From the UHGV virus genome UHGV-1351408: a DNA stretch of 64,000 nucleotides; one strand, 5' to 3'. Below the pieces are notes generated by a model. It was not told where the DNA came from. It ran no database searches and saw nothing but the letters and a program-made list of their open reading frames with translations. The position numbers were made by a program, and so were the translations under genes. Positions within the stretch are counted from its first letter, which is position 1. Each line of letters begins with the position of its first letter. Shown here in pieces: positions 6,012-64,000 of the stretch. The DNA comes from a virus.

Positions 6012-6012
6012 A

Positions 6013-9392: not shown

Positions 9393-9453
9393 TTAGTGTT
9401 GACAAGGTGCTCAGGGAAGAGTACCTTATACTGTATCTTGTATAGGAGGGCTT

Positions 9454-9872: not shown

Positions 9873-9888
9873 ATATTGTGGATACCAA

Positions 9889-10289: not shown

Positions 10290-10298
10290 GGTGAAGAT

Positions 10299-10663: not shown

Positions 10664-10851
10664 ATAAAGAAGGTAAGAATAAGAATGCTGTACTTACTCC
10701 TGATGGGAAGGTTCAATCCTTCATCCTGACAGTTGGTGGAAAACCTTTTCGTTGCCACTGCGGAGCAAACTGCTTTCATAAACCGGATAAAAATGACTTA
10801 GAGCTTTACGCATGTAATGCTTGCAATACTTGGTATCACTCAGAGGAATAA
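10660..10851 (+). CDS. small zinc-ribbon protein
   Basis: 63 aa with CHCGANC ... CNACN motifs. Confidence 0.45.
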   Translation: MNKEGKNKNAVLTPDGKVQSFILTVGGKPFRCHCGANCFHKPDKNDLELYACNACNTWYHSEE

Positions 10852-10852
10852 A

Positions 10853-11956
10853 ATGACAATACTGTACAAACAAAATAAAGACGGCTCTTTTAACGTCTGG
10901 TCGTGTGTTGCTGTAGGTGACAAAGTTATTACAACCTACGGTAAAGAAAATGGCAAGATGATGTTTGAAGAGTATACAGCAGAACCTAAAAACATCGGTA
11001 AAAAGAATGAGCGTAACGCTGAACAGCAAGCTCTCTTTGAAGTTGCTGCAAAGTATAAAAAGCAAGTTGACCGTAAAGGTTATGCTTACACAAAAGAGTC
11101 TGCACAGAATACTGAGAAGGTAGGTGTACAGCTTGCTCATGATGCTGCAAAGGTTAGCCATGCAAAGTATCTGAAGTTCCCTGCTGATGCTCAACCGAAA
11201 CTTGATGGTGTCCGTTGTAGGATTTCAAGGCACTTGAGTATTGGCAGTGTATTTACAGCATATTCTCGTGAGAATACTGTTTACAAAATCCCTACTGAAC
11301 TAATACCTGACATTATGGCAATGTTAAGGCTCCACAAAGATGTTGATGAATTTGATGGAGAGATTTATGCTCATGGGTGGGACTTAGAAGATATCGTCTC
11401 CATGATTAAAAATGAAGATAATCCTGACAGACACTTGCTCAAGTTTTACTGGTACGATATCTGTGACAGTACTAAGACGTGGCCTGAGCGTAGAGATATT
11501 ATTGAGACTTCACCATTGAATGACTTCAGAGACGGCTGTAAAGTTGTACCTGTTAAGTCTCGTCGTGTGAACTCTTGGGAAGAGTTTGATGAAGCTCATG
11601 ATAAGTGGGTTGAAGCTAAGTTTGAAGGTGCAATGTACCGTTCAATCTCTGAAGAATCTTTCTACGAGTGTTGTCACCGTTCATACTTCTTGATTAAACA
11701 CAAGAAGATGCACACTGAAGAGTTTAAAGTGACTGGTGTCAAGACCGATAAACGTGGTCATGGCAAGTTCGTTGTAGAGACTCTTCCTAACGTCTTTGTA
11801 GATGTCTCATGGAAGACTACTCATGAGAAGAAACAGTATCTTGCTGAGCATCCTGAAGAGTTTATCGGGAAACCTTTAACGGTACAGTTCCAGAAGATGA
11901 CTCGTAAGGGTTCTTTACAGTTCCCTGTCGGACTAGTTATTAGGGATTATGAATAA
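10853..11956 (+). CDS. ATP-dependent DNA ligase
   Basis: Adenylation motif I AQPKLDGVRC (KxDG); start placed at MTILYK after GAGGA RBS. Confidence 0.8.
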   Translation: MTILYKQNKDGSFNVWSCVAVGDKVITTYGKENGKMMFEEYTAEPKNIGKKNERNAEQQALFEVAAKYKKQVDRKGYAYTKESAQNTEKVGVQLAHDAAKVSHAKYLKFPADAQPKLDGVRCRISRHLSIGSVFTAYSRENTVYKIPTELIPDIMAMLRLHKDVDEFDGEIYAHGWDLEDIVSMIKNEDNPDRHLLKFYWYDICDSTKTWPERRDIIETSPLNDFRDGCKVVPVKSRRVNSWEEFDEAHDKWVEAKFEGAMYRSISEESFYECCHRSYFLIKHKKMHTEEFKVTGVKTDKRGHGKFVVETLPNVFVDVSWKTTHEKKQYLAEHPEEFIGKPLTVQFQKMTRKGSLQFPVGLVIRDYE

Positions 11957-11966
11957 AAGTTGTTGA

Positions 11967-11995
11967 CATAGAAAATTTGGTGAGTATACTGAGCA
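11967..11995 (+). promoter_or_regulatory. sigma70-like promoter (TTGACA-16-TATACT)
   Basis: gTTGACAtagaaaatttggtgagTATACT directly after the ligase gene, firing into repeat region I. Confidence 0.4.
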
Positions 11996-12000
11996 GCATA

Positions 12001-12325
12001 AACCGACGGGTACTCACCAGCATCACTTAAGAGTCTTTTAAAAGGGTTTTTAAGTGATGTCTGGTAAAGTATGGTTCTGTCCGGTAATGCGATGTATGCT
12101 ATGGTTTGGTGTGGGTAGTTAGTCTCAGCTACATTAAAATGAGACTTACCTTTTTAAAAGGTCTTTAAGAGGGTCTTTTAATGAGGTGGGGTCTGGTTTG
12201 GTATGGTAATGCGAGGTATGGGTCAGGTGGGGTGAGGTGTAGTTAGGTCTGGTATGGGTGGATGGTAGTAGCCACATTAAAAATCTACCAAGTTTCTAAA
12301 GAGTCTTCTGTTGAGGGTTCTTTAC
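12001..12325. repeat. composite repeat region I: two ~140-bp units (palindromic or GTCTTT-box head, GT-rich GGTNNGG body, ACATTAAAA tail)
   Basis: 10-bp perfect inverted repeat CATCACTTAA/TTAAGTGATG at 12021-12059; GGGTC at 12171, 12188, 12220; units recur at 13426-13700. Confidence 0.6.
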
Positions 12326-12347
12326 AAACAACTTAACAATCAACTAA

Positions 12348-12953
<606 letters not shown>

Positions 12954-12955
12954 TT

Positions 12956-13396
12956 ATGAATACAAAAGCATTAGCAGCAAAGTTTAGTTACGGTGACACT
13001 GTATCACATTCTGAGATGGACACCTTCTTAGGTATTGTGAAGCCAACTTATCAAGGTGACATTGTTAAGTACGAAGATGAAATGAAGGCTTATGCACTTA
13101 CACGTCTAAACCGACTTGAGAAGTTTATTGAGAAACTTCTTAAAGAAGAGAAGATTTATCTGGTTGCTTCAATGGGTGTTGGTTATCGTGTGGTTGAACC
13201 TAAACATCAAGCAACTATTGCAAAACGTAAAATGTCTGGTAAGATTGGTCGTGCTTTAAAACAAGCCACTCAAGCAATTGAGAATGTGAACACTATGGCA
13301 CTTAGTCATCAAGAACGTTCACGACTGATTGAACAGCAAAACCATTTAGCTGCTATGAAAGCTAACATTAACAAGCAACGTAGAAAACCTTTCTAA
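12956..13396 (+). CDS. hypothetical protein
   Basis: 146 aa. Confidence 0.5.
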   Translation: MNTKALAAKFSYGDTVSHSEMDTFLGIVKPTYQGDIVKYEDEMKAYALTRLNRLEKFIEKLLKEEKIYLVASMGVGYRVVEPKHQATIAKRKMSGKIGRALKQATQAIENVNTMALSHQERSRLIEQQNHLAAMKANINKQRRKPF

Positions 13397-13405
13397 GTTG
13401 ACTAG

Positions 13406-13431
13406 GTAGCCTCTTCGGAGGCTCCTTTTTA
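13406..13431 (+). terminator. rho-independent terminator
   Basis: AGCCTC-TTCG-GAGGCT hairpin followed by CCTTTTT. Confidence 0.6.
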
Positions 13432-13700
13432 AAAGGTCTTTAAACAGGGTCTTTTAATGAGGTTTGTTATGGTCAGGTATGGTGTGGTGTTGTAAAGTTT
13501 GGTGCGGTCAGGTTAGGCTTGGTATGGGTAGTTAATCGAAACTACATAAAAATTCGATTACATCACTTAAGAGTCTTCTAAGAGGATTTTTAAGTGATGT
13601 CTAGTCAGGTATTGTCCGGTATGGCAAAGCATGGTTCGGTTCGGCAGGGCTTGGTATGGAAGGATGGTAGTAGCCTTATAAAAAATCTGCCAAATAAGCT
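13426..13700. repeat. composite repeat region II (same unit types as region I, reversed order)
   Basis: Head AAAAGGTCTTTAAACAGGGTCTTTTAATGAGGT; palindrome CATCACTTAA/TTAAGTGATG at 13561-13599; GT-rich body. Confidence 0.6.
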
Positions 13701-13783
13701 ATAAAATCTGTTGACAAGTCAGGTGTTATAGCTTATTTTTATACTCAATGTAATACAAAATTTAATATAACTTTGAGGTCATT

Positions 13784-14167
13784 ATGAAAAAGATTTTATT
13801 AGCTGCTGCAATGGTTATGGCAATGAATTTACCAGTCAATGCAACAGAACTCCCAAATGTGGACTTATCAGGTGTTTCAGAAGACACTTGCCAGATTGTT
13901 AAAGGTGTTGCTCTAGCTAATGGTGAGCTACTTAAACCAATCTCTGAAGAGTCTTTGACAGAGATGACTGATAAGGTAACTGACTATCAATATCGCGTTC
14001 TTGCAGAGTATTTCCTGCAATCTGCAAATATTAAAGAGAAGCACCATGATGATATTGATGTACAGGCTATGCTCAATCATCGTATTCAGTTTAAAGAAGA
14101 TTTGATGCAAAAAGCTATGTATGGTGTTGAGTATTTCTTAGAAAACAGAAGCTGCACAGGTATTTGA
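13784..14167 (+). CDS. secreted or periplasmic hypothetical protein
   Basis: 127 aa; N-terminal signal-peptide-like MKKILLAAAMVMAMNLPVNA. Confidence 0.5.
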   Translation: MKKILLAAAMVMAMNLPVNATELPNVDLSGVSEDTCQIVKGVALANGELLKPISEESLTEMTDKVTDYQYRVLAEYFLQSANIKEKHHDDIDVQAMLNHRIQFKEDLMQKAMYGVEYFLENRSCTGI

Positions 14168-14168
14168 T

Positions 14169-14381
14169 ATGGCTCTTAAAAAGTTACATCCCCGAAGCGG
14201 TTATGGTAAGATAATTGACGATACAGATGGCTTTACAGTCTTTACAGTTATCTGTCAAGATGATTCACAGATTGAAAAGGCTCTTGATGATTACCTTAAC
14301 GATGAACGTGAAAAGGTTAGAGCTACAAACATAGATTCATTGATTGACACTTCACGTAAACGGAAGAAGAAAGATGAATGA
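14169..14381 (+). CDS. hypothetical protein
   Basis: 70 aa. Confidence 0.4.
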   Translation: MALKKLHPRSGYGKIIDDTDGFTVFTVICQDDSQIEKALDDYLNDEREKVRATNIDSLIDTSRKRKKKDE

Positions 14382-14673
14382 AGTTTTTGACCCTTATGCT
14401 CCACAAGATGATTGGGAGGCTGACAGAGAGGCTGAAATGGAGAGTTATGTTTGTCCAATGGATGTAGACGAAATGAGAGACTTCGTTGCACACCGTTTTA
14501 AGAAAGAGATTAAATCCAGAGGTCTTTCTCAAGAGCAAGTTGCTAAAATTTGTGGTATCTCTCAGGCTCGCGTATCCAACATAATTAATCTCACTGGTAA
14601 TGTCTCTCTTGAGTTTATGTTGGAAGTATGTGAAAAATTTGGTGTTAATTTTAATTTAAGGCTGGCAGATTAA
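14374..14673 (+). CDS. helix-turn-helix DNA-binding protein (XRE-like)
   Basis: ORF 14344-14673; start at MNEVF; HTH-like QEQVAKICGISQARVSNI. Confidence 0.45.
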   Translation: MNEVFDPYAPQDDWEADREAEMESYVCPMDVDEMRDFVAHRFKKEIKSRGLSQEQVAKICGISQARVSNIINLTGNVSLEFMLEVCEKFGVNFNLRLAD

Positions 14674-14674
14674 T

Positions 14675-15034
14675 ATGAAACGTGAAAACATTATCCACTC
14701 TGAAAACTTCGCATTAGGTTTTTATGGTGTACCGACTCACCTTGAAAAGTATTATGGTGTGAAGATTCTTTCCAATCTCATTATGGCTTACAAAGATGGT
14801 AAGATTAAGCATACTGAGAAGAAACGTGTCATGGGTTATATGGCTGTAGGTTCAGCAATCTCAAACATTAAGCTGGAAACAACTAGCAGCCAGATTGTGA
14901 AAGACCACTTCATCAAAGAGCTTTACCAGAATCTTGACGGTGTAGATGTTCAGGCTGTTTGGTTGGATGTTGATGGTCACAACTACACAAGTTTTGTTTT
15001 CAAAAATGATGACATTAAGTGTCTGTTCCCATAA
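14675..15034 (+). CDS. hypothetical protein
   Basis: 119 aa. Confidence 0.5.
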   Translation: MKRENIIHSENFALGFYGVPTHLEKYYGVKILSNLIMAYKDGKIKHTEKKRVMGYMAVGSAISNIKLETTSSQIVKDHFIKELYQNLDGVDVQAVWLDVDGHNYTSFVFKNDDIKCLFP

Positions 15035-15047
15035 TAGGTGATTAACT

Positions 15048-15563
15048 ATGATTGATATCTACTTACAAGATGCTCATGCAGACTTCCTTAAAGTGATGCT
15101 TAAAAAGTTTATGGCTTCACAGTATGAGAATGAAGCATCTTTTAAAATAGTTACATGTGGCGACGAAGCTGGTTTTGTTGAGATTGAACATGAAGGTACT
15201 GGAAAGACTGTTTGTAAGTTACCTGATAGCATGTTCTCTCCTGTGTTCTTAACAAAGACTAGTATAAATGTTAAGCTTGTACCTCAGATTGAAACATACT
15301 CTGGTACAGATTACCCTAAAGGCTTTAAGTCACTGATGAAGTACTTCTTAGATGACTTTGTGAGTAATCTTCTGAGAGAGGTAAAAGAAAGCCGCACAGT
15401 GTTGACTGTAGAGAATATGGGTGGCGCTATTAGAGTTACTTCTGACTGCTTTGTTATGAGCCTCTTCGACTTCGTTCCTAAGAACTTTGATGGTATTCTG
15501 GATGAAGAAGATGATTGTGTAGACTTTATATTGGTTCTTGAACCAGTTTTTGAGGTTAAATAA
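15048..15563 (+). CDS. hypothetical protein
   Basis: 171 aa. Confidence 0.5.
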   Translation: MIDIYLQDAHADFLKVMLKKFMASQYENEASFKIVTCGDEAGFVEIEHEGTGKTVCKLPDSMFSPVFLTKTSINVKLVPQIETYSGTDYPKGFKSLMKYFLDDFVSNLLREVKESRTVLTVENMGGAIRVTSDCFVMSLFDFVPKNFDGILDEEDDCVDFILVLEPVFEVK

Positions 15564-15824
15564 ATGAAAATTGAACACTGTTATGAGTCTGATGGGACAC
15601 CTATCCGATGCCCACATTGTGGATGTACAGACTTGCAAGGTGAAGTTCATGTGATTGTTAATGGTAACATAGCTGAAGAGAGTACTACATGTGTTGGTTG
15701 CGGTGAGCATCTATCATTCTGGGCTTATGGTTCATACCAACCTACACCACACTTAATCTACCACAGCAATAAAGCTGTGAAGAGTGTTATCAACTGGTTC
15801 ATTAATAAAGGGTTTATAAAATGA
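15564..15824 (+). CDS. zinc-ribbon hypothetical protein
   Basis: 86 aa; CPHCGC ... CVGCGEH. Confidence 0.45.
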   Translation: MKIEHCYESDGTPIRCPHCGCTDLQGEVHVIVNGNIAEESTTCVGCGEHLSFWAYGSYQPTPHLIYHSNKAVKSVINWFINKGFIK

Positions 15825-16366
15825 TTAAATTAATCTTCGCAAGTGGTGAAAATGGTGAATTTGGTACTCCAACTGGTATGCCGTGGCCTCGACATAAACA
15901 GGATATGCAAGAGTTTAAGAGGCTCACTAAAAACAACTTAGTAGTGATGGGTAATGAGACTTTTAAGACTCTGGGGAGTAAACCTTTACCAGAACGTGCA
16001 AACCTAATCTTAACAAATTCTGTACCATATTTAGGCATAGACTTTGGCAAAGATGATATAATGTATGCTAAGGCCACTAAAGAGTCATTTGGAGCATTTT
16101 TGAAGTATCTTGATAGCTCTATTGATGAAGATGTCTTTGTAATTGGTGGTGCAGGTGTTCTTGTTAATGCTTTACCGTATGCTGATGTAGTGTTCCATAC
16201 AGTTTTCCATAAAGTTACTGAAGAGGTCACTGTGTATTTACCTTTTGAAAACTTCTTCGATAAACTGTATGATAACCGTGTATTTGCAAAGGTGCAGTCA
16301 AGACCCTCAGATGATGGTAAAGCAACCTTTGAAATCTATGTTCCACAAGTAAAAGGCCACTTTTGA
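15821..16366 (+). CDS. dihydrofolate reductase
   Basis: N-terminus GTPTGMPW...VVMGNETFKTLG...PLPERANLILT matches the DHFR fold signature; immediately upstream of thymidylate synthase. Confidence 0.75.
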   Translation: MIKLIFASGENGEFGTPTGMPWPRHKQDMQEFKRLTKNNLVVMGNETFKTLGSKPLPERANLILTNSVPYLGIDFGKDDIMYAKATKESFGAFLKYLDSSIDEDVFVIGGAGVLVNALPYADVVFHTVFHKVTEEVTVYLPFENFFDKLYDNRVFAKVQSRPSDDGKATFEIYVPQVKGHF

Positions 16367-48765: not shown

Positions 48766-48893
48766 TGGTATGCCTCTTATAAGACCTCTTAAAAGGCTTT
48801 TAAGATAAAAGATAGATATCCAGAAAGATATCTGTTTAAATAGCCTTTTTAGAGGAACCTTTTAAGTTATCTTCTAAGTATTTATAAGCCTAC

Positions 48894-48916
48894 ACCTTGT
48901 CAAGTACTTTGTCAAC
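48894..48916. promoter_or_regulatory. second copy of 23-bp motif ACCTTGTCAAGTACTTTGTCAAC
   Basis: Differs at one position from 6611-6633; divergent intergenic region upstream of the 49-57 kb plus-strand block. Confidence 0.4.
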
Positions 48917-49014
48917 AACTTTTTTAACTTGTAATAGTTCTTGACTTGTTGTATGGATTACTGTACCATCTTACTTAAAGCTGTAGGTCTGCCTTGTTCT
49001 ACAAAGGAGACTTA

Positions 49015-49176
49015 ATGAGAAAATCAAATAAACCGAAGAAAGGTAAGAATACCAATCACTGTAAGGAATCAAAAAGGGTAGAGTTACTCTACTATTCATC
49101 CTCTGAAATTGGTCTGTACCTGTTCTTTCAAAATTACAGAAGACAAGAGGATTATCTATGTGTAGTTCCCAATTAG
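49015..49176 (+). CDS. small hypothetical protein
   Basis: ORF 48994-49176; start at MRKSNK after AAAGGAGA RBS. Confidence 0.35.
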   Translation: MRKSNKPKKGKNTNHCKESKRVELLYYSSSEIGLYLFFQNYRRQEDYLCVVPN

Positions 49177-56607: not shown

Positions 56608-57156
56608 ATGGAAAAAGATAACTTAAAAGATGTTGAAGGTAACTACCTAGTACTTGACTGGAGTGATATCCGAGAAGCACTCTCCGAAGAAAGCCTTGAC
56701 CTGCTAGAGCAACTTATCTTCTCAGTACGCCATACCAGAGGTATTGTAAATGGTAAAGAACCATTAGAAGGAATCTTTGTAGAGAAGTCTTATCCGTTCT
56801 ATGAAGACACTTTACAGAAAGTTAAAATCTACTTTAGACAGAAGAACCGTAAAGTGGTCACTATGGTATCTCTTGGTGGACAGAGTATGTCTGTGATGGA
56901 AGATATCAACCCTAAGAGACCGAGTAAAGGTGTTTGTATAAAAATCACAGGTCATGAAGAGTATATCTCAGTGGATGACTTTAGCTCATTCTGTAGTGGT
57001 TCTTGTGTCTTTAATGGTTTTCACTATGATATCCGAGTGTACCCAATCAAGGGAGATGATATCATGATGCAGGTATTCGATAATAACAATGGATTTACTC
57101 ATTTTTATCAGACAACCAAGTCATCATTAAAAACAGTTCTTGAAACACTGATTTAA
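56608..57156 (+). CDS. hypothetical protein
   Basis: ORF 56551-57156; start uncertain (56551 or 56608). Confidence 0.45.
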   Translation: MEKDNLKDVEGNYLVLDWSDIREALSEESLDLLEQLIFSVRHTRGIVNGKEPLEGIFVEKSYPFYEDTLQKVKIYFRQKNRKVVTMVSLGGQSMSVMEDINPKRPSKGVCIKITGHEEYISVDDFSSFCSGSCVFNGFHYDIRVYPIKGDDIMMQVFDNNNGFTHFYQTTKSSLKTVLETLI

Positions 57157-57166
57157 AATATCTTAA

Positions 57167-57195
57167 GAGCCTCCTTAATCGGGGGCTTTTTAATT
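57167..57195 (+). terminator. rho-independent terminator ending the plus-strand block
   Basis: AGCCTCC-TTAATC-GGGGGCT followed by TTTTT. Confidence 0.55.
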
Positions 57196-57199
57196 TTTA

Positions 57200-58758
57200 T
57201 AAAATTTTATCGGTTGTCCCAACCTCTGGGTCACCATCATATGTGAATAAGATATCTACCCTTCTTAATAGCCTTCTTAATCTTACTCTCTATATAGTTA
57301 TATAGTACTATACAGTATCTTAGTAACTATCTAGTGGTCTTAATAGCCCTCTGTATAGCCCTTCTAAACACTCTTCTAACAAGCCTTCTTAACAGCCTAT
57401 ACAATCACCTTAACCGTACCTCTACACCCTCTTAGAAGCCCCTATACACCTCTTAATCTCTATGTCAGCTATGATACCCTCTATATGTGTTCACTAGGGA
57501 ATACTAAGCCTCTATATAGACTGTTTTAACAAACTTAACAGGAATATCTTCACAGACCTTATCTCACAAGGTCTAACACGGTACTAACAAGGTATCTTAT
57601 AAGCCTGTTTATGCCTGTATTTTTAAAAGACTGTATAGGTAATTATTCAGAATTTTAAAATTTTTATAAAATAGGACTATCAAGTCATTTTTTAGGGTCT
57701 TTGAAGGAACTGAAAAATATCTGTAGAAGATGTATATCTGCTTGGTAGCCCTTAACATCCCTGTAACATCCCCTTTGCAGAATTTTAAAATATCATTAAC
57801 AATCTCTTAACAGCTATTACATTCTCTTAACATCTCTTCAGAGGTCTTAACAGATTCTTAACAGAACTAACAAGGGTGTAACAAGTTCTTAACAGTCAAT
57901 ACATGGTCTTTATAGTTTCTTAACAGATGACTAACAATAGCTAACAAGTTAATTTTTAAGAGTTATTTTGTAGGGATTGGTAACAATACCAATTAAGATA
58001 ATTAACAAGTTTCTAACAAGTGTTTAATCTTTTTAACAAGCTATTAACATGGTCACTATCTCTTTTCTTATCATTCCCTTTCCCTCTTAGTGATTCTCTA
58101 AATAGCCCTCTTAAAAGCTCTCTATAGCTCCTTGTAAGCTCTTTTAAGCCTCTTCCTAGTAGTTACACCCCAACTGTACAGACACCTTTTTATAGGGCTT
58201 TACAGGGGCTTTAAAGGCTATGTCAAAGGTTCTTACAAGGCTTTTACGTGGTCTTAACAGAGATTTAACAAGGGGCTAACAAGTTGCTAACAAGTGCCTT
58301 AAAAGCATAACTATGTAGGGATTGTTAAGAAATTGTTAAGAAAATGTTAAGGGGGCTAGCATTTACGTAACTTTTAAGCTATCTATCACGTAACTTTGAA
58401 GTAACTTTATAGCCCCTATAACATACTTTTTAGTGACTATCAAGGGGATTGTTTAGTTATTCACAAGATACTAACGAGATAATAAAGCTCACACCCTTAT
58501 AAGATTCTTTTAAGCCTCTATAAAGCCCTGTAAAGAGCTTTTAAGGGTGAGTTAATGCAATCCCTTAAGTTAGATTGATAAGGCTGTTATAGCGCTTTAT
58601 AGAGCGTTTAAGTGGGCCATCCCCTTTCTGGGGTTATTGGCTTATATTTAAGTTGATTTGATAAAAGGCTATAGAGTAGACTATAGAGTTATTGCTTTTA
58701 AGGTCTGATAAGATTCTGAAAAGGTGAGGAAAGGGATTGTATAAGGATTGGATAGACG
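57200..58758. repeat. 1.6-kb non-coding iteron-rich region (more than 25 TAACA(A/G)G copies, both orientations) with an AT-rich tract
   Basis: Dense runs at 57790-57960, 58010-58050, 58250-58300, inverted copies TTGTTAAG at 58320-58350; AT-rich 57290-57340; no ORF of 60 aa or more. Confidence 0.6.
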
Positions 58759-58782
58759 TAAAAAAGCCCCTGTGAGGGGCTG
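58759..58782 (-). terminator. rho-independent terminator ending the 58.8-64 kb minus-strand block
   Basis: AGCCCC-TGTGA-GGGGCT with T-run on minus strand; second hairpin GGGGCT-ATTT-AGCCCC at 58796-58811. Confidence 0.55.
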
Positions 58783-58821
58783 TATAAAGGTATCTGGGGC
58801 TATTTAGCCCCGTTGCGTCGA

Positions 58822-59070
58822 TTAGTTGTAACCTTGTTTATTGTAGTACAGTGAGACAATCAAGTCACCCCAGTAATGATAGTGATGCTCATCGTTTAAT
58901 GCCTCTTTTACAGCGTCTTTCCAGAAGTCATCAGTAGGGTTATAATCTGGGATAACTTGCTTGATAACTGTCTTCACTAATGAAAAGCATTCATCAGTTC
59001 CACCGATATCAAATTTAACGTCCAGAGTATAACAGCCATAAGCATTGACAGTTGCGCGGATAGTTGCCAT
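58822..59070 (-). CDS. hypothetical small protein
   Basis: 82 aa; preceded by type-A cassette. Confidence 0.5.
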   Translation of the reverse strand: MATIRATVNAYGCYTLDVKFDIGGTDECFSLVKTVIKQVIPDYNPTDDFWKDAVKEALNDEHHYHYWGDLIVSLYYNKQGYN

Positions 59071-59139
59071 TTTCAGAATCTCCTAGTTTAAGGACTTTAT
59101 TTAGTGGGGAAGGTCATTCCCTCCCCGTTGATTAGTAAT
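59071..59139 (-). promoter_or_regulatory. type-A intergenic cassette (8-bp hairpin GGGGAGGG/CCTTCCCC + CACTAAATAAAG + SD)
   Basis: Minus-strand read ...CAACGGGGAGGGAATGACCTTCCCCACTAAATAAAGTCCTTAAACTAGGAGATTC...ATG. Confidence 0.5.
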
Positions 59140-59403
59140 TTACTGCATGTTGGCGTATGTTGCAAGCCTTTTTTCGTTGTATTTTGTCAGAATCTCACAA
59201 GATAAAACATCATATTTTGTAACCGCTTTGCCTTTGTCGAGGTCAAAGAATCCGAACGCTTTACCGTCTTTGAATCCGACAACTTCGTAAGATTCTTTAA
59301 CGATTTCACCATTGAACAAATCGCTTTCGATGCGGTGAAACAGTGCTACGTCTTCTTTGTCAGTTGCAATTTGTAAAAGTGTGGTCAGCTCGACGTGTTC
59401 CAT
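59140..59403 (-). CDS. hypothetical small protein
   Basis: 87 aa; type-A cassette upstream. Confidence 0.5.
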   Translation of the reverse strand: MEHVELTTLLQIATDKEDVALFHRIESDLFNGEIVKESYEVVGFKDGKAFGFFDLDKGKAVTKYDVLSCEILTKYNEKRLATYANMQ

Positions 59404-59468
59404 TTCGAATCTCCAGTTTAGGATTTTATTTAGTGGGGAAGGTCATTCCCTCCCCGTTGATTGACAAT
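59404..59468 (-). promoter_or_regulatory. type-A intergenic cassette
   Basis: Near-identical to 59071-59139. Confidence 0.5.
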
Positions 59469-59999
59469 TTACAGATTTTTGATTGTCTCGTCAATGTCTT
59501 TTTCAATATCTTTTAAAGTTTTTTCTAAGTTCTTGATATTGAACGTTAAACCTTCTCCCAGTGTCTTAGAGTAACCGCTAGGACGTAAATCATAAAGCTC
59601 GATTTCTTCCACTAGAGAAAGGTTAACAGCCCAGCCACCTATGCCGTAGGCCATTGAAACGGTATTTACAGGGGCTTTATAGAACTTGTTCAAGGACTTG
59701 ATAGAACGTTCATAAGCCATTTTATAACCATTTAAAAGGTTTTTAACGTGGTTGTGAACGTTTTTACAATCATCTAAGTAAAGACCTAAAAACATCGGGA
59801 GAAGTTCCGCGACAGCTTGCATAAAGTGAGAGACTACAACGGTGGAAACATTGCGACGATGGACGTAATAAGCCCCGTTTTCTGATTTGGTAATGGTTGC
59901 AAAGTGTACACCATTGCAACGAAATTCATAGGTATCTTTAACAGGCTTTGACATTACAGCATTTGAACGAATGAAGTTGATAGCTTGAAATTTGTTCAT
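59469..59999 (-). CDS. hypothetical protein
   Basis: 176 aa; type-A cassette upstream. Confidence 0.5.
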   Translation of the reverse strand: MNKFQAINFIRSNAVMSKPVKDTYEFRCNGVHFATITKSENGAYYVHRRNVSTVVVSHFMQAVAELLPMFLGLYLDDCKNVHNHVKNLLNGYKMAYERSIKSLNKFYKAPVNTVSMAYGIGGWAVNLSLVEEIELYDLRPSGYSKTLGEGLTFNIKNLEKTLKDIEKDIDETIKNL

Positions 60000-60075
60000 T
60001 TTAGAATCTCCAGTTTAGGACTTTATTTAGTGGGGAGGTTATTGCCTTCCCGTTGATTAGTAATTTACTTGTTTT
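60000..60075 (-). promoter_or_regulatory. type-A intergenic cassette (variant hairpin)
   Basis: GGGGAGGTTATTGCCTTCCC variant; followed by 145 bp extra spacer containing a TTGTCAAG motif at 60147-60167. Confidence 0.45.
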
Positions 60076-60219
60076 GATAGCTGATTGCAAGCAATTTTTT
60101 AAGTTTATCTATAAAGAATCTTTTAAGTGAATCCCTTTTAGATAAACCCCCTCGAACAAATGTACTATTGTCAAGGGGTATCGTCAAGTAATTTTTTAAA
60201 GTTTTTTATAAGTTATTGA

Positions 60220-60561
60220 TTAACTGATGAATATTTTTTCAGGCTTTACATAGCTGATACGCTGACTTTTTAGCAGGTCATCCCAGATTAGCGCGGCAAT
60301 ATGAGAATAGCCGGATTCACGTAAAAGTTTCATTGTTTTACTTCTCGTCTCAAAGCGGCTTGCGTAGTATTCACTGTTCAAGGTTGTTTTATTCCCTTCG
60401 TTGTCTGTATGGATGATTTGCATCACTTGAAAGGGGCTTACATCCTCACCTTTGTTCCACTGCTCAAAGTATTTTAGGCACTGCATAGGTGATATCTTAT
60501 CACTTACTTGAGTTGACCAAGATGAACCCTCTTTATCAGTAATTACAGTTACATAAGCCAT
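60220..60561 (-). CDS. hypothetical protein
   Basis: 113 aa; type-A cassette upstream. Confidence 0.5.
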   Translation of the reverse strand: MAYVTVITDKEGSSWSTQVSDKISPMQCLKYFEQWNKGEDVSPFQVMQIIHTDNEGNKTTLNSEYYASRFETRSKTMKLLRESGYSHIAALIWDDLLKSQRISYVKPEKIFIS

Positions 60562-60650
60562 TTTAGAATCTCCAGTTTAGGACTTTATTTAGTGGGGAAG
60601 GTCATTCCCTCCCCGTTGATTGACAATTTACAGATTTTTATCAGGCTTGT
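60562..60650 (-). promoter_or_regulatory. type-A intergenic cassette
   Basis: Identical core to 59404-59468. Confidence 0.5.
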
Positions 60651-60884
60651 CTAGTCTTTTTCAATGATAATTTCATACTGACCATCTACGCTGTCAAAAT
60701 AGACACCATCTTCATCTTCTGTCTTAAAGTAGCATTGAATATCATCACTGGCGGGATAGTCTTGTCTTGCTATCTGGCAAACTTGAATAGCATTTTCTTT
60801 ACTCCCTGTAAACTCCTCAAGCCCTTTAAAATCACATGAATGACCATTACAAATAGAAAGGATAAGATAAACGGTTGTAAGCAT
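60651..60884 (-). CDS. hypothetical small protein
   Basis: 77 aa; no conserved cassette upstream, only a GGCCC-TGTAT-GGGCC hairpin. Confidence 0.45.
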   Translation of the reverse strand: MLTTVYLILSICNGHSCDFKGLEEFTGSKENAIQVCQIARQDYPASDDIQCYFKTEDEDGVYFDSVDGQYEIIIEKD

Positions 60885-60947
60885 GATTTAAGCCCTTTAA
60901 ATGGCCCTGTATGGGCCTTAAGTTGGAAGTTGGTGTCTTTGTACTGA

Positions 60948-61511
60948 TTAACCTAAAAAGTCTTTTAAATTGCGCTCTGTGATGTTTGCCGTGATTTTAT
61001 CCAACAAGTCACAAAACACGGAACTATCACCGCTATTCTGTACAATTTTCGCCATACTTAACAAATCATCGTCAACATAGCCTAAATTGCGGTTAGTTGC
61101 ATCTGGTACAAAGAAAGGTGCATACATCGCACTAAATTTCGTCGAGTGAAGGCCAATAATCCAACCTTTATCAAAGTGTCCGGTAAAGCTGGCGATATCA
61201 CTCATGTTGTCACAAGAATAATCATCCTCTAGCTCTTCCTCTGGGATATCCATCTCAATGACAATTACGTCCTGCGTTTCCATTTGGAAAGCTGCCGTAA
61301 TAAGCCCAGATTCTAAAGCGTTTTGAATGCAGCGTTCACGAATGTAAGAATCTTCCTCATCTTCCAGACATTCCGTTTTGATAATCTTGTTCATTGGGTA
61401 AACGTAGAAACAATCATCCATGTATGAGCAGTTCCAGATTCCTTCCGGCTTGTCGCCACCATTCAGCAGGTTTACAAAGTTTTTGATGGTAGTTCCGTGA
61501 TAGCATTTCAT
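60948..61511 (-). CDS. hypothetical acidic protein
   Basis: 187 aa; type-B cassette upstream. Confidence 0.5.
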   Translation of the reverse strand: MKCYHGTTIKNFVNLLNGGDKPEGIWNCSYMDDCFYVYPMNKIIKTECLEDEEDSYIRERCIQNALESGLITAAFQMETQDVIVIEMDIPEEELEDDYSCDNMSDIASFTGHFDKGWIIGLHSTKFSAMYAPFFVPDATNRNLGYVDDDLLSMAKIVQNSGDSSVFCDLLDKITANITERNLKDFLG

Positions 61512-61596
61512 TTTTGAATCTCCAGTTTAGGATTTAGTGGTAAAGCTCTTTATCTGGGGCTTACTTTATCGAACTATAAGCCCCTTGTAAAGTACT
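61512..61596 (-). promoter_or_regulatory. type-B intergenic cassette (hairpin GGGGCTTA..TAAGCCCC flanked by AAAGTACTTTAC / AAAGAGCTTTAC direct repeats + SD)
   Basis: Minus-strand read ATAAAGTACTTTACAAGGGGCTTATAGTTCGATAAAGTAAGCCCCAGATAAAGAGCTTTACCACTAAATCCTAAACTGGAGATTC...ATG. Confidence 0.5.
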
Positions 61597-61845
61597 TTAT
61601 TTAACTTTTTTTGAGAAAATTAGTTTAACTGCAACTGTAGGAATCTCGTCAGCGGTTGTAACCAGCATTACTTTTTGAGTGACCAACTTATAACCGTTCT
61701 TTGCAGCGTATGCGGTAAAACGGTTGACATTGTAACTATAAGTTTTTGGTGTGTTGTCTGGCATGTGGTAAAGAAAAGGTTTACCCAAGTTTTCTTCTTG
61801 TGTCAATAGTCGGCAGGTATCAGGGACATTGAAATAGTTCATCAT
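61597..61845 (-). CDS. hypothetical small protein
   Basis: 82 aa; type-B cassette upstream. Confidence 0.5.
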   Translation of the reverse strand: MMNYFNVPDTCRLLTQEENLGKPFLYHMPDNTPKTYSYNVNRFTAYAAKNGYKLVTQKVMLVTTADEIPTVAVKLIFSKKVK

Positions 61846-61937
61846 TTTTTAATCTCCTAGTTTAAGGACTGTGTAAAGCTCTTTATCTGGGGCTTAAGAT
61901 ACCAACTTTTTAAGCCCCTTGTAAAGTACTTTATTAC
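61846..61937 (-). promoter_or_regulatory. type-B intergenic cassette
   Basis: Hairpin GGGGCTTAAGATACCAACTTTTTAAGCCCC. Confidence 0.5.
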
Positions 61938-62135
61938 TTAATTTTTGACAACTTTTAAAACTGCAAGATAACCTAAGCAATAAGAATCACCGAAGAGAGT
62001 TCTACCCATGAAAGAATCCTCTTTGATATCCTTTGCAGTGACAGTTTTTTCTACGCCGTGGGAAAGGACTACATCACCAACTTTGATATCTTTGATGTGT
62101 GTTGTTTCAATGGTTAAGCCGTTAATAATAGCCAT
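61938..62135 (-). CDS. hypothetical small protein
   Basis: 65 aa; type-A cassette upstream. Confidence 0.45.
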   Translation of the reverse strand: MAIINGLTIETTHIKDIKVGDVVLSHGVEKTVTAKDIKEDSFMGRTLFGDSYCLGYLAVLKVVKN

Positions 62136-62210
62136 TTTAGAATCTCCTAGTTTAAGGACTTTATTTAGTAGGGAGGTTATTGCCTCCCCGTTGATGAGTA
62201 ATTTAATCTA
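62136..62210 (-). promoter_or_regulatory. type-A intergenic cassette (variant)
   Basis: GTAGGGAGGTTATTGCCTCCCC variant hairpin. Confidence 0.45.
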
Positions 62211-62235
62211 TCTAAAAATCAGTGTCAACATCTTT

Positions 62236-62640
62236 TTAAAGTTCTGCGTAGATTGCATCACAGACATCACGGAAATCATGATTTGTTAAGTTACGTTGTA
62301 ACCAAGTGGCAAAGAAATCAGCGATTGCAAAATTAGCGTCATACTCGACGGATAGCCACACTTTAACAGCAAATCGGAACATCTTTAAATCAAGCTCTTT
62401 ATTCATTACCTTTGATTTGCCTAACATGTCGGCCATCTCATGTTGTGCACCGTCTAGCGTGATACCGGCTGCAACGTCAGCCAATGAGTTTTTTACGCTT
62501 TCAACGTCTAAGATAATACTTTGAATCTTCCCAATAATGTTTTGCAGTGTTTCATCTGGTGCTGATGATGTGATAACATTAATCCGGTTGACGGTCAAAC
62601 GTGCTTTTAAGATAGATAACTCACGATTATTAATAGCCAT
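62236..62640 (-). CDS. hypothetical protein
   Basis: 134 aa; type-B cassette upstream. Confidence 0.5.
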   Translation of the reverse strand: MAINNRELSILKARLTVNRINVITSSAPDETLQNIIGKIQSIILDVESVKNSLADVAAGITLDGAQHEMADMLGKSKVMNKELDLKMFRFAVKVWLSVEYDANFAIADFFATWLQRNLTNHDFRDVCDAIYAEL

Positions 62641-62725
62641 TTTTGAATCTCCAATTTAGGATTTAGTGGTAAAGCTCTTTATCTGGGGCTTACTTTATCG
62701 AACTATAAGCCCCTTGTAAAGTACT
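62641..62725 (-). promoter_or_regulatory. type-B intergenic cassette
   Basis: Same hairpin as 61512-61596. Confidence 0.5.
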
Positions 62726-62998
62726 TTATGCTAAATGCAGCTTTTTGCCTTTTACTATGATGTAACTTGATGCGCTATTGCCGCATACATCTTGATAAAT
62801 TCTACGCAAACGGCCTTCGTAGTATACTTTCCAGCTAGTTGGAATCTTTTTCCCGTATCCGGTAGCAGTTTTTTGGAATCCTGCAAGTTGCCAATCCAAA
62901 ATGTGCTGTTCAGCTTGTAAATCCTCGAAGTGCATTACACCGTTTACATAGTGGCGTAGGGTTACGTTTAAGGTGCGACCGTTGTTAGTAGTGTACAT
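62726..62998 (-). CDS. hypothetical small protein
   Basis: 90 aa; type-A cassette upstream. Confidence 0.5.
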   Translation of the reverse strand: MYTTNNGRTLNVTLRHYVNGVMHFEDLQAEQHILDWQLAGFQKTATGYGKKIPTSWKVYYEGRLRRIYQDVCGNSASSYIIVKGKKLHLA

Positions 62999-63075
62999 TT
63001 TTGAATCTCCTAGTTTAAGGACTTTACTTAGTGGGGAAGGTCATTCCCTCCCCGTTGATTAGTAATTTACTTGTT
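62999..63075 (-). promoter_or_regulatory. type-A intergenic cassette
   Basis: GGGGAAGGTCATTCCCTCCCC hairpin. Confidence 0.5.
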
Positions 63076-63088
63076 TTTAAAACTAAAA

Positions 63089-63421
63089 TCAAGAGAAATT
63101 TTTTCGTTTGTTCAGTTCTTGGACAATTACAGTGTAATAGTCTTTTAAGTCACTGATATTTAAAGCATTTATCAGAGAGTTATAATCATCGACAAGCTGA
63201 AAATTATCTTTGAAAATGTCGCTGATTTGATAAGTTTTTGATTGAAATCTGAAGCTCATTTCTAACCGTTTTATTTGTTCATCACTTAAACGCTCCAGAA
63301 AGCTCATTACAAGGCTATTATTAACCTGTTGCGTGATTGCCTTACTTGCCAAATTATATGCGCTATAAGCCTTGTACAGTGCTATAATGGCAATGATTGC
63401 AGTGATACCCATCATTAACAT
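63089..63421 (-). CDS. hypothetical membrane protein
   Basis: 110 aa; N-terminal TM segment MLMMGITAIIAIIALY; overlaps upstream gene by 7 nt. Confidence 0.5.
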   Translation of the reverse strand: MLMMGITAIIAIIALYKAYSAYNLASKAITQQVNNSLVMSFLERLSDEQIKRLEMSFRFQSKTYQISDIFKDNFQLVDDYNSLINALNISDLKDYYTVIVQELNKRKNFS

Positions 63422-63711
63422 GGTGCTTCCTCTTTACGTGATACTTTGCCATTTAAAGTTATCTCATAAGACTCTAGTAAATCACTTTCAGACTTAACAG
63501 GACTTTTACAAGTATCATCATAAACATTAATTTGCAATACAGGCTTTTTATACTCCCTGCAACTATTCCATAAGCAAATCACTACACGACGGCCTTTTAT
63601 TTTGCCGTGTAACCATTCCATAACCTCATGAGTATTTCTTGAGGTCTCGATAAAATCGATTTTGTTGAGTAACTTGCTTAGATTTTCCCTAACTTTATTT
63701 GATAATTTCAT
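63415..63711 (-). CDS. hypothetical protein
   Basis: 98 aa; type-B cassette upstream. Confidence 0.5.
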   Translation of the reverse strand: MKLSNKVRENLSKLLNKIDFIETSRNTHEVMEWLHGKIKGRRVVICLWNSCREYKKPVLQINVYDDTCKSPVKSESDLLESYEITLNGKVSRKEEAPC

Positions 63712-63799
63712 TTTTGAATCTCCAGTTTAGGATTTAGTGGTAAAGCTCTTTATCTGGGGCTTAAGATATCAGCTTTTAAGCCCCTTGTAAAGTACTTTA
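63712..63799 (-). promoter_or_regulatory. type-B intergenic cassette
   Basis: Hairpin GGGGCTTAAGATATCAGCTTTTAAGCCCC. Confidence 0.5.
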
Positions 63800-64000
63800 T
63801 CAGATTAAATTGCCAGTTAATGATAAGTGCATTTTATAGCCTTTTTTGGTAAAAACGTTCACTTTACCCAGTGTTTTTACACCTTTAAAAAGGTTGTTTG
63901 AACTGCGTTTTAAAGTTAACTGCTTATCAACCTTCACGCCCCACCTTACAGCAGATTGTTTCCCGTTGTCAATCACTTTCCCGCATAACTTTTTAGCCAT
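63800..64000 (-). CDS. hypothetical small basic protein
   Basis: 66 aa; start codon at the last three bases of the window, so upstream region unseen. Confidence 0.45.
   Translation of the reverse strand: MAKKLCGKVIDNGKQSAVRWGVKVDKQLTLKRSSNNLFKGVKTLGKVNVFTKKGYKMHLSLTGNLI

Follow-up and report, generated by a model that had tools for sequence, protein, structure and literature searches.

Hairpin-bearing cassettes of two types, probably promoters, precede small genes in a Felix O1-like bacteriophage

The window, a 64,000-nucleotide stretch of viral DNA, contains ten repeated cassettes, each of which precedes one gene and most likely brings together a host-type σ70 promoter, an RNA hairpin and a ribosome-binding site. 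We put at about 0.7 the probability that these cassettes are compact gene-gene junctions of an early accessory array that is read by the host σ70 RNA polymerase. The window derives from a Felixounavirus and is 94% identical to phage VpaE1_ev108, and the phage is most likely a Felix O1-like virus whose cassettes precede small early genes. All ten array genes that were tested encode proteins of PHROG families of unknown function, without a Pfam match.

The original prediction described ten conserved repeats of two kinds ahead of nearly every small gene, and this description holds. Six type-A and four type-B cassettes lie between 59068 and 63799, all of them on the minus strand, and 10 of the 12 complete small genes have one in front. 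The two genes without a cassette of their own encode 77 aa (60651-60884) and 110 aa (63089-63421), the latter with a start that overlaps the upstream gene. The common 3' part that had been noted is likewise present, reading CACTAAAT..CCTAAACTGGAGATTC, or the variant CCTTAAACTAGGAGATT, and running into the ATG; every one of the ten cassettes places GGAG 7-9 nt ahead of that codon. The cassette motifs greatly exceed chance expectation and are restricted to this block: CCTAAACTGGAGATTC has six cassette matches with at most one mismatch and one more at 38998 with three mismatches (total 7, against 0.75 expected), AAAGTACTTTACAAGGGGC has four exact matches against 0.00 expected, and AATCAACGGGGAGGG occurs six times in the block against 0.62 expected.

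Type-A cassettes are built, along the minus strand, of TTGnnn, 17 bp, TAAATT, 10 nt, an 8-bp G/C-rich hairpin, an A/U-rich leader, GGAG, 7-9 nt and ATG. The -35 hexamer falls within the upstream gene or at its end and reads TTG in five of six copies, though it sits in unrelated coding sequence; the spacer is 17 bp and the -10 is TAAATT in all six. The hairpin is exactly GGGGAGGG-AATGA-CCTTCCCC in four of the six, A3 and A5 being variants, and the leader folds with a ΔG of -17.9 and a z-score of -2.8. Cassette A1 (59068-59165) precedes an 82-aa gene (58822-59070) and has its -35 (TTGCAA) at 59160-59165, its -10 at 59137-59142, the exact hairpin at 59106-59126, the Shine-Dalgarno (SD) GGAG at 59080-59083 and ATG at 59068-59070; the first three nucleotides of the -10 are the TAA stop codon of the upstream gene. 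A2 (59401-59494), before an 87-aa gene (59140-59403), has TTGACG at 59489-59494, the -10 at 59466-59471, the hairpin at 59435-59455 and the SD at 59411-59414. A3 (59997-60090), before a 176-aa gene (59469-59999), has TTGCAA at 60085-60090, the -10 at 60062-60067, the SD at 60008-60011 and a degenerate hairpin, GGGAAGGC-AATAA-CCTCCCC, with one A·C mismatch (60032-60051). A4 (60559-60653) precedes a 113-aa gene (60220-60561), with TAGACA at 60648-60653, the -10 at 60625-60630, the hairpin at 60594-60614 and the SD at 60570-60573. A5 (62133-62228), before a 65-aa gene (61938-62135), has TTGACA at 62223-62228, the -10 at 62200-62205, the SD at 62144-62147 and the hairpin GGGGAGG-caataa-CCTCCCT (62170-62189; variant arms GGGGAGGC/CCTCCCT). 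The last, A6 (62996-63092), precedes a 90-aa gene (62726-62998) and has TTGATT at 63087-63092, overlapping the stop codon of the upstream gene, the -10 at 63064-63069, the hairpin at 63033-63053 and the SD at 63007-63010.

Type-B cassettes carry TTTACA, a spacer of 17 or 18 bp and TAnnnT, often TGn-extended. The hairpin arms occupy the spacer and discriminator, the -10 lies in the hairpin loop, and all four copies hold GGGGCTTA...TAAGCCCC between the flanks AAAGTACTTTAC and AAAGAGCTTTAC. B1 (61509-61599) starts at the TAA stop of the upstream gene and precedes a 187-aa gene (60948-61511); its -35 is at 61586-61591 and, after 17 bp, TAAAGT at 61563-61568 lies across the loop and 3' arm. The upper stem of B1, GGGGCTTAT/GTAAGCCCC, spans 61556-61584, the lower stem pairs AAAGTACTTTA (61588-61598) with TAAAGAGCTTT (61542-61552), and the SD is at 61520-61523. 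B2 (61843-61933), before an 82-aa gene (61597-61845), has TTTACA at 61920-61925, an 18-bp spacer, the extended -10 TGG-TATCTT (hexamer 61896-61901), an upper stem at 61889-61918, a lower stem joining 61922-61932 to 61875-61885, and the SD at 61854-61857. B3 (62638-62728), before a 134-aa gene (62236-62640), has TTTACA at 62715-62720, 17 bp, TAAAGT at 62692-62697, stems at 62685-62713 (upper) and 62717-62727 with 62671-62681 (lower), and the SD at 62649-62652. B4 (63709-63799), before a 98-aa gene (63415-63711), has TTTACA at 63786-63791, 17 bp, the extended -10 TGA-TATCTT (hexamer 63763-63768), stems at 63756-63784 (upper) and 63788-63798 with 63742-63752 (lower), and the SD at 63720-63723.

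It had been claimed that no σ70 -35/-10 spacing fits these elements, and here our results differ: all ten cassettes in the window have such a pair at 17 or 18 bp. The earlier reading addressed the common 3' part, but the -10 is just upstream of the type-A hairpin or inside the type-B loop. In a consensus scan, seven of the ten cassettes reach 9 of 12 positions. Relatives keep the same geometry while stems and loops vary across 43 type-B and 67 type-A variants, although these variant counts are of non-independent events, as cassette copies within and between genomes share ancestry. Among the 43 distinct type-B hairpin cores TTTACA is invariant and TAnnnT follows at 17 bp in 39 and at 18 bp in 3 (42 of 43 in all), with 12 different -10 hexamers and a TG at the extended -10 position in 28; about 65 of the 67 distinct type-A contexts have TTG (or TAG) at the -35, the six different -10 hexamers are all TAnnnT, and the hairpin begins 10-11 nt past the -10. 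The homologue of A5 is annotated as a promoter in the AYO145A GenBank record, and in VpaE1_ev108 the array starts after a terminator with a 17-bp stem, its first unit being a type-A cassette with TTGACT-17-TAATAT.

That said, several observations stand against the promoter reading. Agreement with the consensus is no better than moderate (8-10 of 12), with TAAATT two bases away from TATAAT; scanned for promoters in general, the region shows no overall enrichment (28 against 20.8 expected); and neither the strongly conserved leader CACTAAAT..CCTAAACT nor the conserved AGATAAAGAGCTTTAC is explained by a promoter and SD alone. By RT-PCR in Felix O1, the cassette-preceded ORFs 16, 20, 21 and 22 peak 5 min after infection (PMC3185647, Table 3), but ORFs 17, 19 and 23, also preceded by cassettes, were placed at 25 min rather than 5 min (PMC3185647). 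One could suppose instead that a single upstream promoter drives the array and that the repeats are ribosome-binding spacers and stabilising hairpins spread by duplication. The common 3' part does have the form of a translation initiation region in all ten cassettes, with GGAG 7-9 nt before the ATG, and the similarity of the copies could come from recent duplication or gene conversion. We think this improbable, however: the type-A -35 is not part of the repeated core but of unrelated coding sequence, and still reads TTG at exactly 17 bp, the -10 hexamers vary and yet stay TAnnnT, and the best consensus match is the first cassette past a strong terminator.

The cassettes had also been likened to promoters of phage-encoded polymerases, either single-subunit (T3/T7-like) or hairpin-dependent (N4-like). 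The heptamer CACTAAA is indeed common to the T3 promoter, and the hairpins, as at N4 promoters, adjoin putative starts. Unlike at those promoters, neither the T3 nor the T7 core consensus has a match within three mismatches, and what comes after CACTAAA is TAAAGT, not GGGAGA, with no initiating GGG. N4 virion polymerase promoters require a polymerase of about 3500 aa, and the window has no ORF of that size. The earlier observation that the window holds no RNA polymerase gene stands, its large ORFs being primase-helicase, DNA polymerase A, tail fibre, tape measure and terminase. Nor did a search beyond the window find a cognate polymerase in the Felix O1 annotation (parts 1-16000 and 60000-86155), a phage that according to its genome paper encodes no RNA polymerase (PMC3185647). 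A phage polymerase as the reader of the cassettes is effectively refuted.

If the host σ70 polymerase does read the cassettes, type-A transcription is predicted to start about 7-8 nt past the -10, 2-3 nt before the hairpin, and the mRNA would begin with a 5'-terminal stem-loop. Such stem-loops guard E. coli mRNAs from 5'-end-dependent decay; stabilisers of this kind, for example that of the ompA 5' UTR, were reportedly described by Emory, Bouvet and Belasco in 1992. The type-A arrangement, a G/C-rich hairpin predicted 2-3 nt from the 5' end, then an A/U-rich leader and the SD, is similar, with the difference that its transcript start is a prediction. By contrast, RNA begun at a type-B promoter would be without the hairpin; read-through RNA from upstream would contain it.

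The hairpins apparently function at the RNA level, on the sense strand, because G·U far exceeds A·C and compensatory changes occur. The partners are paired in 91.8% of cells, compared with 30-57% when they are shifted out of register; at pair 11/63, 15 sequences have GC and 8 have UA, and at pair 26/48, 13 have CG, 10 UG and 3 UA. G·U pairs are confined to the sense strand, with 35 cells against 3 for A·C (23 against 0 in a larger set). The type-B fold extends to a helix of about 20 bp, in which a 3x3 internal loop separates the 9-bp upper stem from a lower stem of some 11 bp (AAAGUACUUUA / UAAAGAGCUUU), with ΔG of -21.6 to -25 kcal/mol and z-scores of -4 to -6.4. In read-through RNA this helix would process, attenuate or 3'-stabilise upstream transcripts, possibly via host RNase III. 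The suggested resemblance to RNase III sites is reasonable for type B, given its helix length, 3x3 loop and covariation; the 8-bp type-A hairpin is too short as a substrate. The T7 early region contains RNase III processing hairpins such as R1.1, at sites without a promoter; early transcription in T7 starts from a small number of promoters at the left genome end. Like these, the type-B element is an irregular hairpin (upper stem, internal loop, lower stem, about two helical turns) between early cistrons and, if cleaved, could stay at the 3' end of the upstream mRNA; unlike these, it contains a predicted promoter, and its cleavage is putative.

It is possible, if somewhat doubtful, that type B is mainly such an RNA element, a hairpin for processing by RNase III (or another endonuclease) or for 3'-stabilisation that separates cistrons of a long early transcript, with TTTACA and TAnnnT incidental or secondary and promoters provided by type A only. 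The extended, stable helix, the covariation in both of its stems and the restriction of wobble pairs to the sense strand speak for this reading, and if the predicted type-B start is right, selection on a hairpin found only in read-through RNA implies that read-through matters. But an RNA loop has no evident need for a TAnnnT kept 17-18 bp from an invariant TTTACA through 12 hexamers, or for the TG of 28 of the 43 variants, and the C and A of TTTACA are conserved even though they are unpaired in the internal loop. The two roles are, moreover, not mutually exclusive.

The symmetry of type B might alternatively be that of an operator, in which a dimeric regulator of early promoters, from the phage or the host, binds the 10-bp palindromes AAAGTACTTT and AAAGAGCTTT on either side of the GGGGCTTA/TAAGCCCC inverted repeat. 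Both near-palindromic 10-mers overlap typical repressor positions, the -35 and +2 to +15; the palindromes are kept as far as Erwinia phages, where both copies are AAAGAGCTTTA, and AGATAAAGAGCTTTAC is conserved beyond the needs of a leader. Against this, departures from symmetry are sense-strand G·T rather than A·C (35 cells against 3, or 23 against 0 in the larger set), which fits RNA pairing and not a protein on double-stranded DNA, and the half-site centres are about 47 bp, or 4.5 helical turns, apart, which places them on opposite helix faces. No regulator candidate emerged, and the array proteins lack Pfam matches; we consider an operator unlikely.

For promoters joined to hairpins in this way, we regard the PeSL (promoter-early stem-loop) cassettes of T4-type phages as the closest known system; we found no description of PeSL-like cassettes in Ounavirinae in the literature. 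PeSLs join a σ70-type promoter to a GGGG...CCCC stem-loop, which may sit between -35 and -10, overlap the -10 or follow closely after it (Arbiol et al. 2010, PMC2839356). They extend from the stop codon of one small ORFan through the SD and ATG of the next (PMC2839356) and are grouped in a variable region whose early genes have no known function (PMC2839356; Comeau et al. 2014, PMC4122927). Indels and replacements between related phages break in them, and chimeric cassettes occur (PMC2839356; PMC4122927). The architecture of predicted promoter and stem-loop, the stop-to-ATG span, the early ORFan setting, the breakpoints and a chimera are all matched here. The differences are that our cassettes come from Ounavirinae, with sequence similarity to the T4-type cassettes not established; that a loose motif is replaced by only two sharply defined types conserved across genera; and that the type-B hairpin is prolonged into a two-part helix some 20 bp long that shows covariation and sense-strand G·U. 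PeSL stem-loops have been proposed as terminators, a role that is doubtful for the present cassettes, since no U-tract follows the hairpins, and that would be self-defeating for the type-A hairpin, which lies downstream of its own promoter at the predicted mRNA 5' end.

The same elements are listed as direct repeats in the Felix O1 genome paper (Whichard et al. 2010, PMC3185647), the 57-bp repeat CTTTACATGGGGCTTAAAAGTCTGTAAAGTAAGCCCCAGATAAAGAGCTTTACCACT corresponding to type B and the 39-bp repeat TTGACACTGGTTTTTAGATAGATTAAATTACACATCAAC to the promoter half of type A. That paper gave the repeats no function, mentioned neither hairpins nor a family-wide distribution, and did not include the repeats among its five predicted promoters (PMC3185647).

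Alignments indicate that related phages gained and lost genes at the cassettes, as described for PeSLs. Internal alignment ends between relatives fall in cassettes in 36 of 47 cases, against 21.5% expected, as do 14 of 21 distinct breakpoint clusters. Being in the same orientation, with 60-90 nt in common, the cassettes are substrates for homologous recombination, which has probably inserted, deleted and swapped cassettes together with their genes in Felix O1-like phages. The 87-aa gene (59140-59403) is absent from Felix O1, where the alignment breaks at A1 and A2, and A4 is one breakpoint of a four-gene difference from the same phage. AYO145A, SUT_S920, C600M2 and L27 lack the 82-aa gene (61597-61845), their alignments breaking at B1 and B2; SUT_S920 has a chimeric cassette in which the 5' half of B2 is followed by the 3' half of B1, the gene between being absent. 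Six relatives (AYO145A, SUT_S920, SUSP2, Sl26, C600M2 and L27) carry an extra segment of about 0.5 kb at B4, and the B4 interval 63706-63800 aligns at both edges of that segment.

The block at 58700-64000 matches 256 phage records, nearly all of them Felixounavirus with Escherichia, Salmonella, Shigella or Citrobacter hosts, and is 94% identical to Escherichia phage VpaE1_ev108 over 99% of its length; the window is thus part of a Felixounavirus, subfamily Ounavirinae. All genes of the array lie on the minus strand, and their counterpart in Felix O1 is the last part of the unit of transcription made up of genes 1-23 (ORF15-ORF23 plus variable neighbours). The original prediction counted ten cassettes here, and all were recovered in place: six of type A (A1, 59068-59165; A2, 59401-59494; A3, 59997-60090; A4, 60559-60653; A5, 62133-62228; A6, 62996-63092) and four of type B (B1, 61509-61599; B2, 61843-61933; B3, 62638-62728; B4, 63709-63799). 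They do stand upstream of nearly every small gene, that is, 10 of the 12 complete genes of the block. Elsewhere in the 64 kb the core motifs have only single chance matches with three mismatches, and their counts far exceed shuffled expectation, making the cassettes a real, strongly non-random feature. The ten array proteins tested had only PHROG matches of unknown function, and none had a match in Pfam.

The cassettes are fitted closely to the genes around them. Every type-B cassette starts exactly at the TAA stop codon of the upstream gene and ends at an ATG, and the TAAATT hexamer of both A1 and A2 has the stop codon of the upstream gene as its first three bases. Across the array, stop codons sit at the 5' edge of the cassette or within the putative promoter elements, and the cassette fills the gap to the downstream SD sequence and ATG. 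Two leader forms, CCTAAACTGGAGATTC and CCTTAAACTAGGAGATT, are distributed over all ten cassettes, each with both cassette types (B2 and A1 share the second), which suggests crossovers inside cassettes. Immediately 5' of the SD, TAAACT is invariant across cassettes, and SD function alone provides no explanation for it. Apart from the overlapping pair of 110-aa and 98-aa genes, which have no spacer, the sole cassette-free intergenic spacer of the array is 60885-60947. It carries another small hairpin, GGCCC-TGTAT-GGGCC (60893-60907, plus strand), a weak SD before the 77-aa gene, and no sigma-70 pair.

The earlier view that the spacing fits no sigma-70 -35/-10 pair did not hold up: the search behind it covered the shared 3' part, and a sigma-70-like pair with a 17- or 18-bp spacer lies further upstream in all ten cassettes, seven of which agree with the consensus at 9 or more of 12 positions. 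In each of the six type-A cassettes, TAAATT is followed after 10 nt by an 8-bp stem, and a -35 hexamer is found exactly 17 bp upstream of TAAATT (in order, TTGCAA, TTGACG, TTGCAA, TAGACA, TTGACA and TTGATT). None of these -35 hexamers belongs to the repeated core; they lie within the final codons of six different genes. All four type-B cassettes have TTTACA, then 17 or 18 bp, then TAAAGT or TGnTATCTT inside the hairpin loop. The comparison was widened with cassettes from IMG/VR contigs and twelve annotated relatives. In the 43 distinct type-B hairpin cores so gathered, TTTACA is invariant and TAnnnT follows at the same 17/18 spacing in 42, with twelve different -10 hexamers and a TG at the extended -10 position in 28; among 67 distinct type-A contexts, the -35 has TTG (or TAG) in about 65, and the -10 takes six forms, all of them TAnnnT. 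These variant sets point to a promoter geometry that has been kept while stems and loops vary.

Existing annotation and expression data bear on the same question. In the curated AYO145A record the A5 homologue carries a promoter annotation, and in VpaE1_ev108 the array begins downstream of a terminator with a 17-bp stem, its first unit being a type-A cassette with TTGACT-17-TAATAT. RT-PCR of Felix O1 showed ORFs 16, 20, 21 and 22 peaking at 5 min, and ORFs 17, 19 and 23 at 25 min (PMC3185647). Transcripts are predicted to start 6-9 nt past TAAATT in type A (for A1, near 59129) and at the AGATAAAG position in type B (for B1, near 61555). We infer promoter activity, start sites and hairpin function; on that footing, the cassettes are best explained as an early host-polymerase promoter joined to an RNA hairpin and an RBS, the whole doubling as a recombination linker.

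A phage-encoded polymerase had been suggested instead, from a loose resemblance of the cassette core to T3/T7-type promoters. Such promoters share a conserved consensus, some 23 bp long, that includes an initiating GGG. No match to the T3 or T7 consensus core was found within 3 mismatches, TAAAGT after CACTAAA stands in place of the initiating GGG, and there is no polymerase gene to go with them, so this reading was rejected. Promoters of the N4 type, which the hairpins might recall, depend on a virion RNA polymerase some 3500 aa long and on a hairpin whose stem of 5-7 bp is closed by a 3-nt loop; this reading was rejected as well, since the window has no giant polymerase ORF (its largest, of 909 aa, is DNA polymerase A) and the loops here are of 5 nt and 11-13 nt. 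The window was rightly said to have no RNA polymerase gene, as its large ORFs have other functions: primase-helicase, DNA polymerase A, tail fibre, tape measure, terminase and a DUF protein. For the rest of the genome, which the window does not cover, the Felix O1 annotation at 1-16000 and 60000-86155 contains no RNA polymerase, and according to the Felix O1 genome paper none is encoded (PMC3185647). A late or middle phage promoter in the shared 3' part is considered unlikely: CACTAAAT and AAAG(W)(R)CTTTAC do not occur upstream of structural genes. The shared part can be read as a T4 MotA-box-like arrangement (AGCTTTA-N11-TAAACT), an unlikely reading in which the start would fall inside or after the SD; neither MotA nor AsiA has been reported for Felix O1 (PMC3185647).

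If the host-polymerase promoters are as predicted, the two hairpins would occupy quite different places. In the fold of the type-A leader (-17.9 kcal/mol, z -2.8), the 8-bp hairpin begins at nt 4 of the transcript as predicted. In type B, a stem of 8-9 bp extends across the spacer and discriminator with the -10 in its loop, and in the extended fold a 3x3 internal loop separates a 9-bp upper stem from a lower helix of 5 bp and 6 bp with one mismatch between them, with energies of -21.6 to -25 kcal/mol (z -4.1 to -6.4) that are alike in the Escherichia, Salmonella and Erwinia phage versions. When 26 type-B cassettes from four genera were aligned, 91.8% of cells were paired, compared with 30-57% for slid partners, and double changes were evident at two positions (GC in 15 and UA in 8; CG in 13, UG in 10 and UA in 3). 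Non-Watson-Crick pairs were sense-strand G·T in 35 cells and A·C in only 3, the latter all in one poorly aligned Erwinia variant; a larger type-B set gave 23 and 0. This asymmetry would be unexpected for a DNA palindrome read by protein or for a cruciform, and the hairpins thus appear to have been selected as sense-strand RNA.

The cassette hairpins were rejected as classic intrinsic terminators: a terminator scan flagged none of them, and they have no U-tracts, which argues against this kind of termination, while real terminators lie nearby at 57165-57190 (plus strand) and 58765-58781 (minus strand). An attenuating effect is possible. An Rfam scan of 57000-64000 at E<=1 gave no family for the cassettes, the only hit being a chance Phe-leader match outside the array. 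RNase III sites are stretches of double-stranded RNA some two helical turns long (around 20 bp), and many contain an internal loop. The original suggestion of such sites suits type B, with its covarying helix of about two turns, roughly 20 bp, and its internal loop; the 8 bp of type A are too short. The predicted type-B fold likewise resembles in shape the RNase III sites of T7. If the type-B start is right, this hairpin would be present only in read-through RNA from upstream, and its role would concern the upstream message, through processing, attenuation or 3' protection. One could go further and propose that type B is dual-coded across the Ounavirinae, with about 60 nt serving both as sigma-70 promoter DNA, its -10 in the apical loop, and as an RNase III-type bipartite hairpin that processes or insulates on read-through RNA; accessory genes would then be insulated and independently expressed, and the repeats would be built-in recombination sites moving promoter-plus-gene modules between phages. 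Taken whole, this proposal is tentative and strikes us as rather doubtful.

The part of the main reading that concerns recombination could be addressed by aligning the array block to ten relatives. Internal alignment ends fell in cassettes in 36 of 47 cases, compared with 21.5% expected, as did 14 of 21 distinct breakpoint clusters, and two more clusters were within 35 nt of B1. In Felix O1 the 87-aa gene is missing and the alignment breaks at A1 and A2; a run of four adjacent genes is missing too, the breaks there being at A4 and A5. The 82-aa gene at 61597-61845 is absent from AYO145A, SUT_S920, C600M2 and L27, where the alignments break at B1 and B2. An extra segment of ~0.5 kb is present at B4 in six relatives (AYO145A, SUT_S920, SUSP2, Sl26, C600M2 and L27), and interval 63706-63800 of the window aligns to each edge of this segment. 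The SUT_S920 cassette before the 187-aa gene is a chimera of the B2 5' half and the B1 3' half, the product expected from a crossover in the shared TAAGCCCCAGATAAAGAGCTTTAC. A MITE-like mobile element was rejected as an explanation: the cassettes have a single orientation, each spans the interval between a stop codon and an ATG, and no target-site duplications could be read from the sequence.

Type A is found in 249 phage records, with about 4-7 copies in most records among the matches listed. Type B is found in 288, including the genera Mooglevirus and Suspvirus and, at 76-84% identity, Erwinia Kolesnikvirus phages. A third flavour is seen in Erwinia phages (SunLIRen 7638, 10133 and 10536), with TTGCAA or TTTACA, GGGGTTA-cggttatgagacta-TAACCCC, GTCGAAACAAACAACCC and an AAGGA-type SD; the hairpin and a TGn-GACTAT at a 17-nt spacing are retained, and the AGATAAAGAGCTTTAC segment is replaced. 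SunLIRen also has another exact repeat (399-420 and 2961-2982), GGGACTC-TTCG-GAGTCCT plus a T-run, which is a canonical terminator and is absent from the window's array. The Erwinia phage phiEa21-4 has a precisely conserved terminator in many copies, and the SunLIRen repeat fits this pattern.

The closest known parallel is with the promoter-early stem-loop cassettes (PeSLs) of T4-type phages, in which a sigma-70 promoter is combined with a GGGG...CCCC stem-loop at variable positions relative to the -35/-10, and which, set among ORFans, reach from one stop codon to the next ATG and bring about modular shuffling (PMC2839356, PMC4122927). Both anatomy and behaviour match: sigma-70-like elements within the 16-18 bp spacing of PeSLs; a stable stem-loop (typically GGGG...CCCC in PeSLs) within or beside the promoter; a span from stop codon to SD/ATG among clustered small genes of unknown function; and inter-phage insertions, deletions and replacements that break at the cassettes. 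For PeSLs, reporter assays have in addition demonstrated promoter activity and terminator activity of the stem-loop, and mini-circles form. The original definition of PeSLs, however, places them in T4-type (Tevenvirinae-like) genomes, whereas the window is from the Ounavirinae. The present cassettes differ further: they fall into two sharply conserved sequence types, their type-B helix is extended and covarying, and they lack U-tracts. By analogy, then, they would work like PeSLs yet form a separate lineage. The Felix O1 genome paper listed a 57-bp repeat, equivalent to type B, and a 39-bp repeat, equivalent to the type-A promoter half, without interpretation; its candidate promoters numbered only five, and it did not settle how genes lying beyond terminators come to be expressed (PMC3185647). 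In the literature searched, PeSLs are discussed for T4-like phages only, the wV8 paper mentions neither promoters nor repeats, and no transcriptome, transcript mapping or transcription-start data were found for Felixounavirus.

Felix O1-like phages are widely used in Salmonella typing, biocontrol and therapy, and to our knowledge their transcription programme is essentially unmapped. If the cassettes are promoters, they would provide about a dozen early promoters per genome and would explain the gain and loss of accessory early genes, likely with host-takeover and anti-defence functions, as ready-to-express modules. They would also extend the PeSL idea to a second, unrelated myovirus subfamily, which suggests that regulatory cassettes doubling as recombination linkers have evolved convergently. 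As two compact ~90-bp units of promoter, RNA structure and RBS, they would make natural portable expression parts, and they may mark safe insertion points for engineering Felix O1-like phages.

Some further sites in the window deserve mention. Within the 220-nt spacer upstream of A3, 60091-60219 contains a separate promoter-like site, TTGACG-17-TACATT (60187-60159, minus strand), and a promoter is annotated at the corresponding, homologous position in the AYO145A record; the spacer also holds an imperfect direct repeat of 43 nt (60088-60130 and 60185-60227). In the divergent intergenic region 48766-49157, AAAGTACTTGACAAGG (48892-48910, minus strand) resembles the type-B -35 context AAAGTACTTTACAAGG and is preceded by a second TTGACA; AAAGTACTTGACA in this region is like that context. 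No convincing -10 could be assigned to it in 48766-49157, and 48892-48910 may be a stand-alone early promoter of cassette style.

Beside the array is a 1665-bp ORF-free gap (57157-58821), set between the two convergent terminators and equivalent to the gap that separates ORF23 from ORF24 in Felix O1. Its GC content is 35%, compared with 38.9% for the window, and it is conserved like coding DNA: for Felixounavirus-type relatives the figure is 80-90% (mostly 86-90%), and for Moogle and SUSP2 it is 77% across about 1.55 kb. The gap contains about 31 copies of [CT]TAACA[AG], often spaced by 10-11 or about 31 nt, with CTAACA enriched 28-fold and TAACAA 19-fold, as well as three inverted TGTTAA at 58323-58345. 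This arrangement resembles an array of iterons and may be a replication origin or some other region bound by protein.
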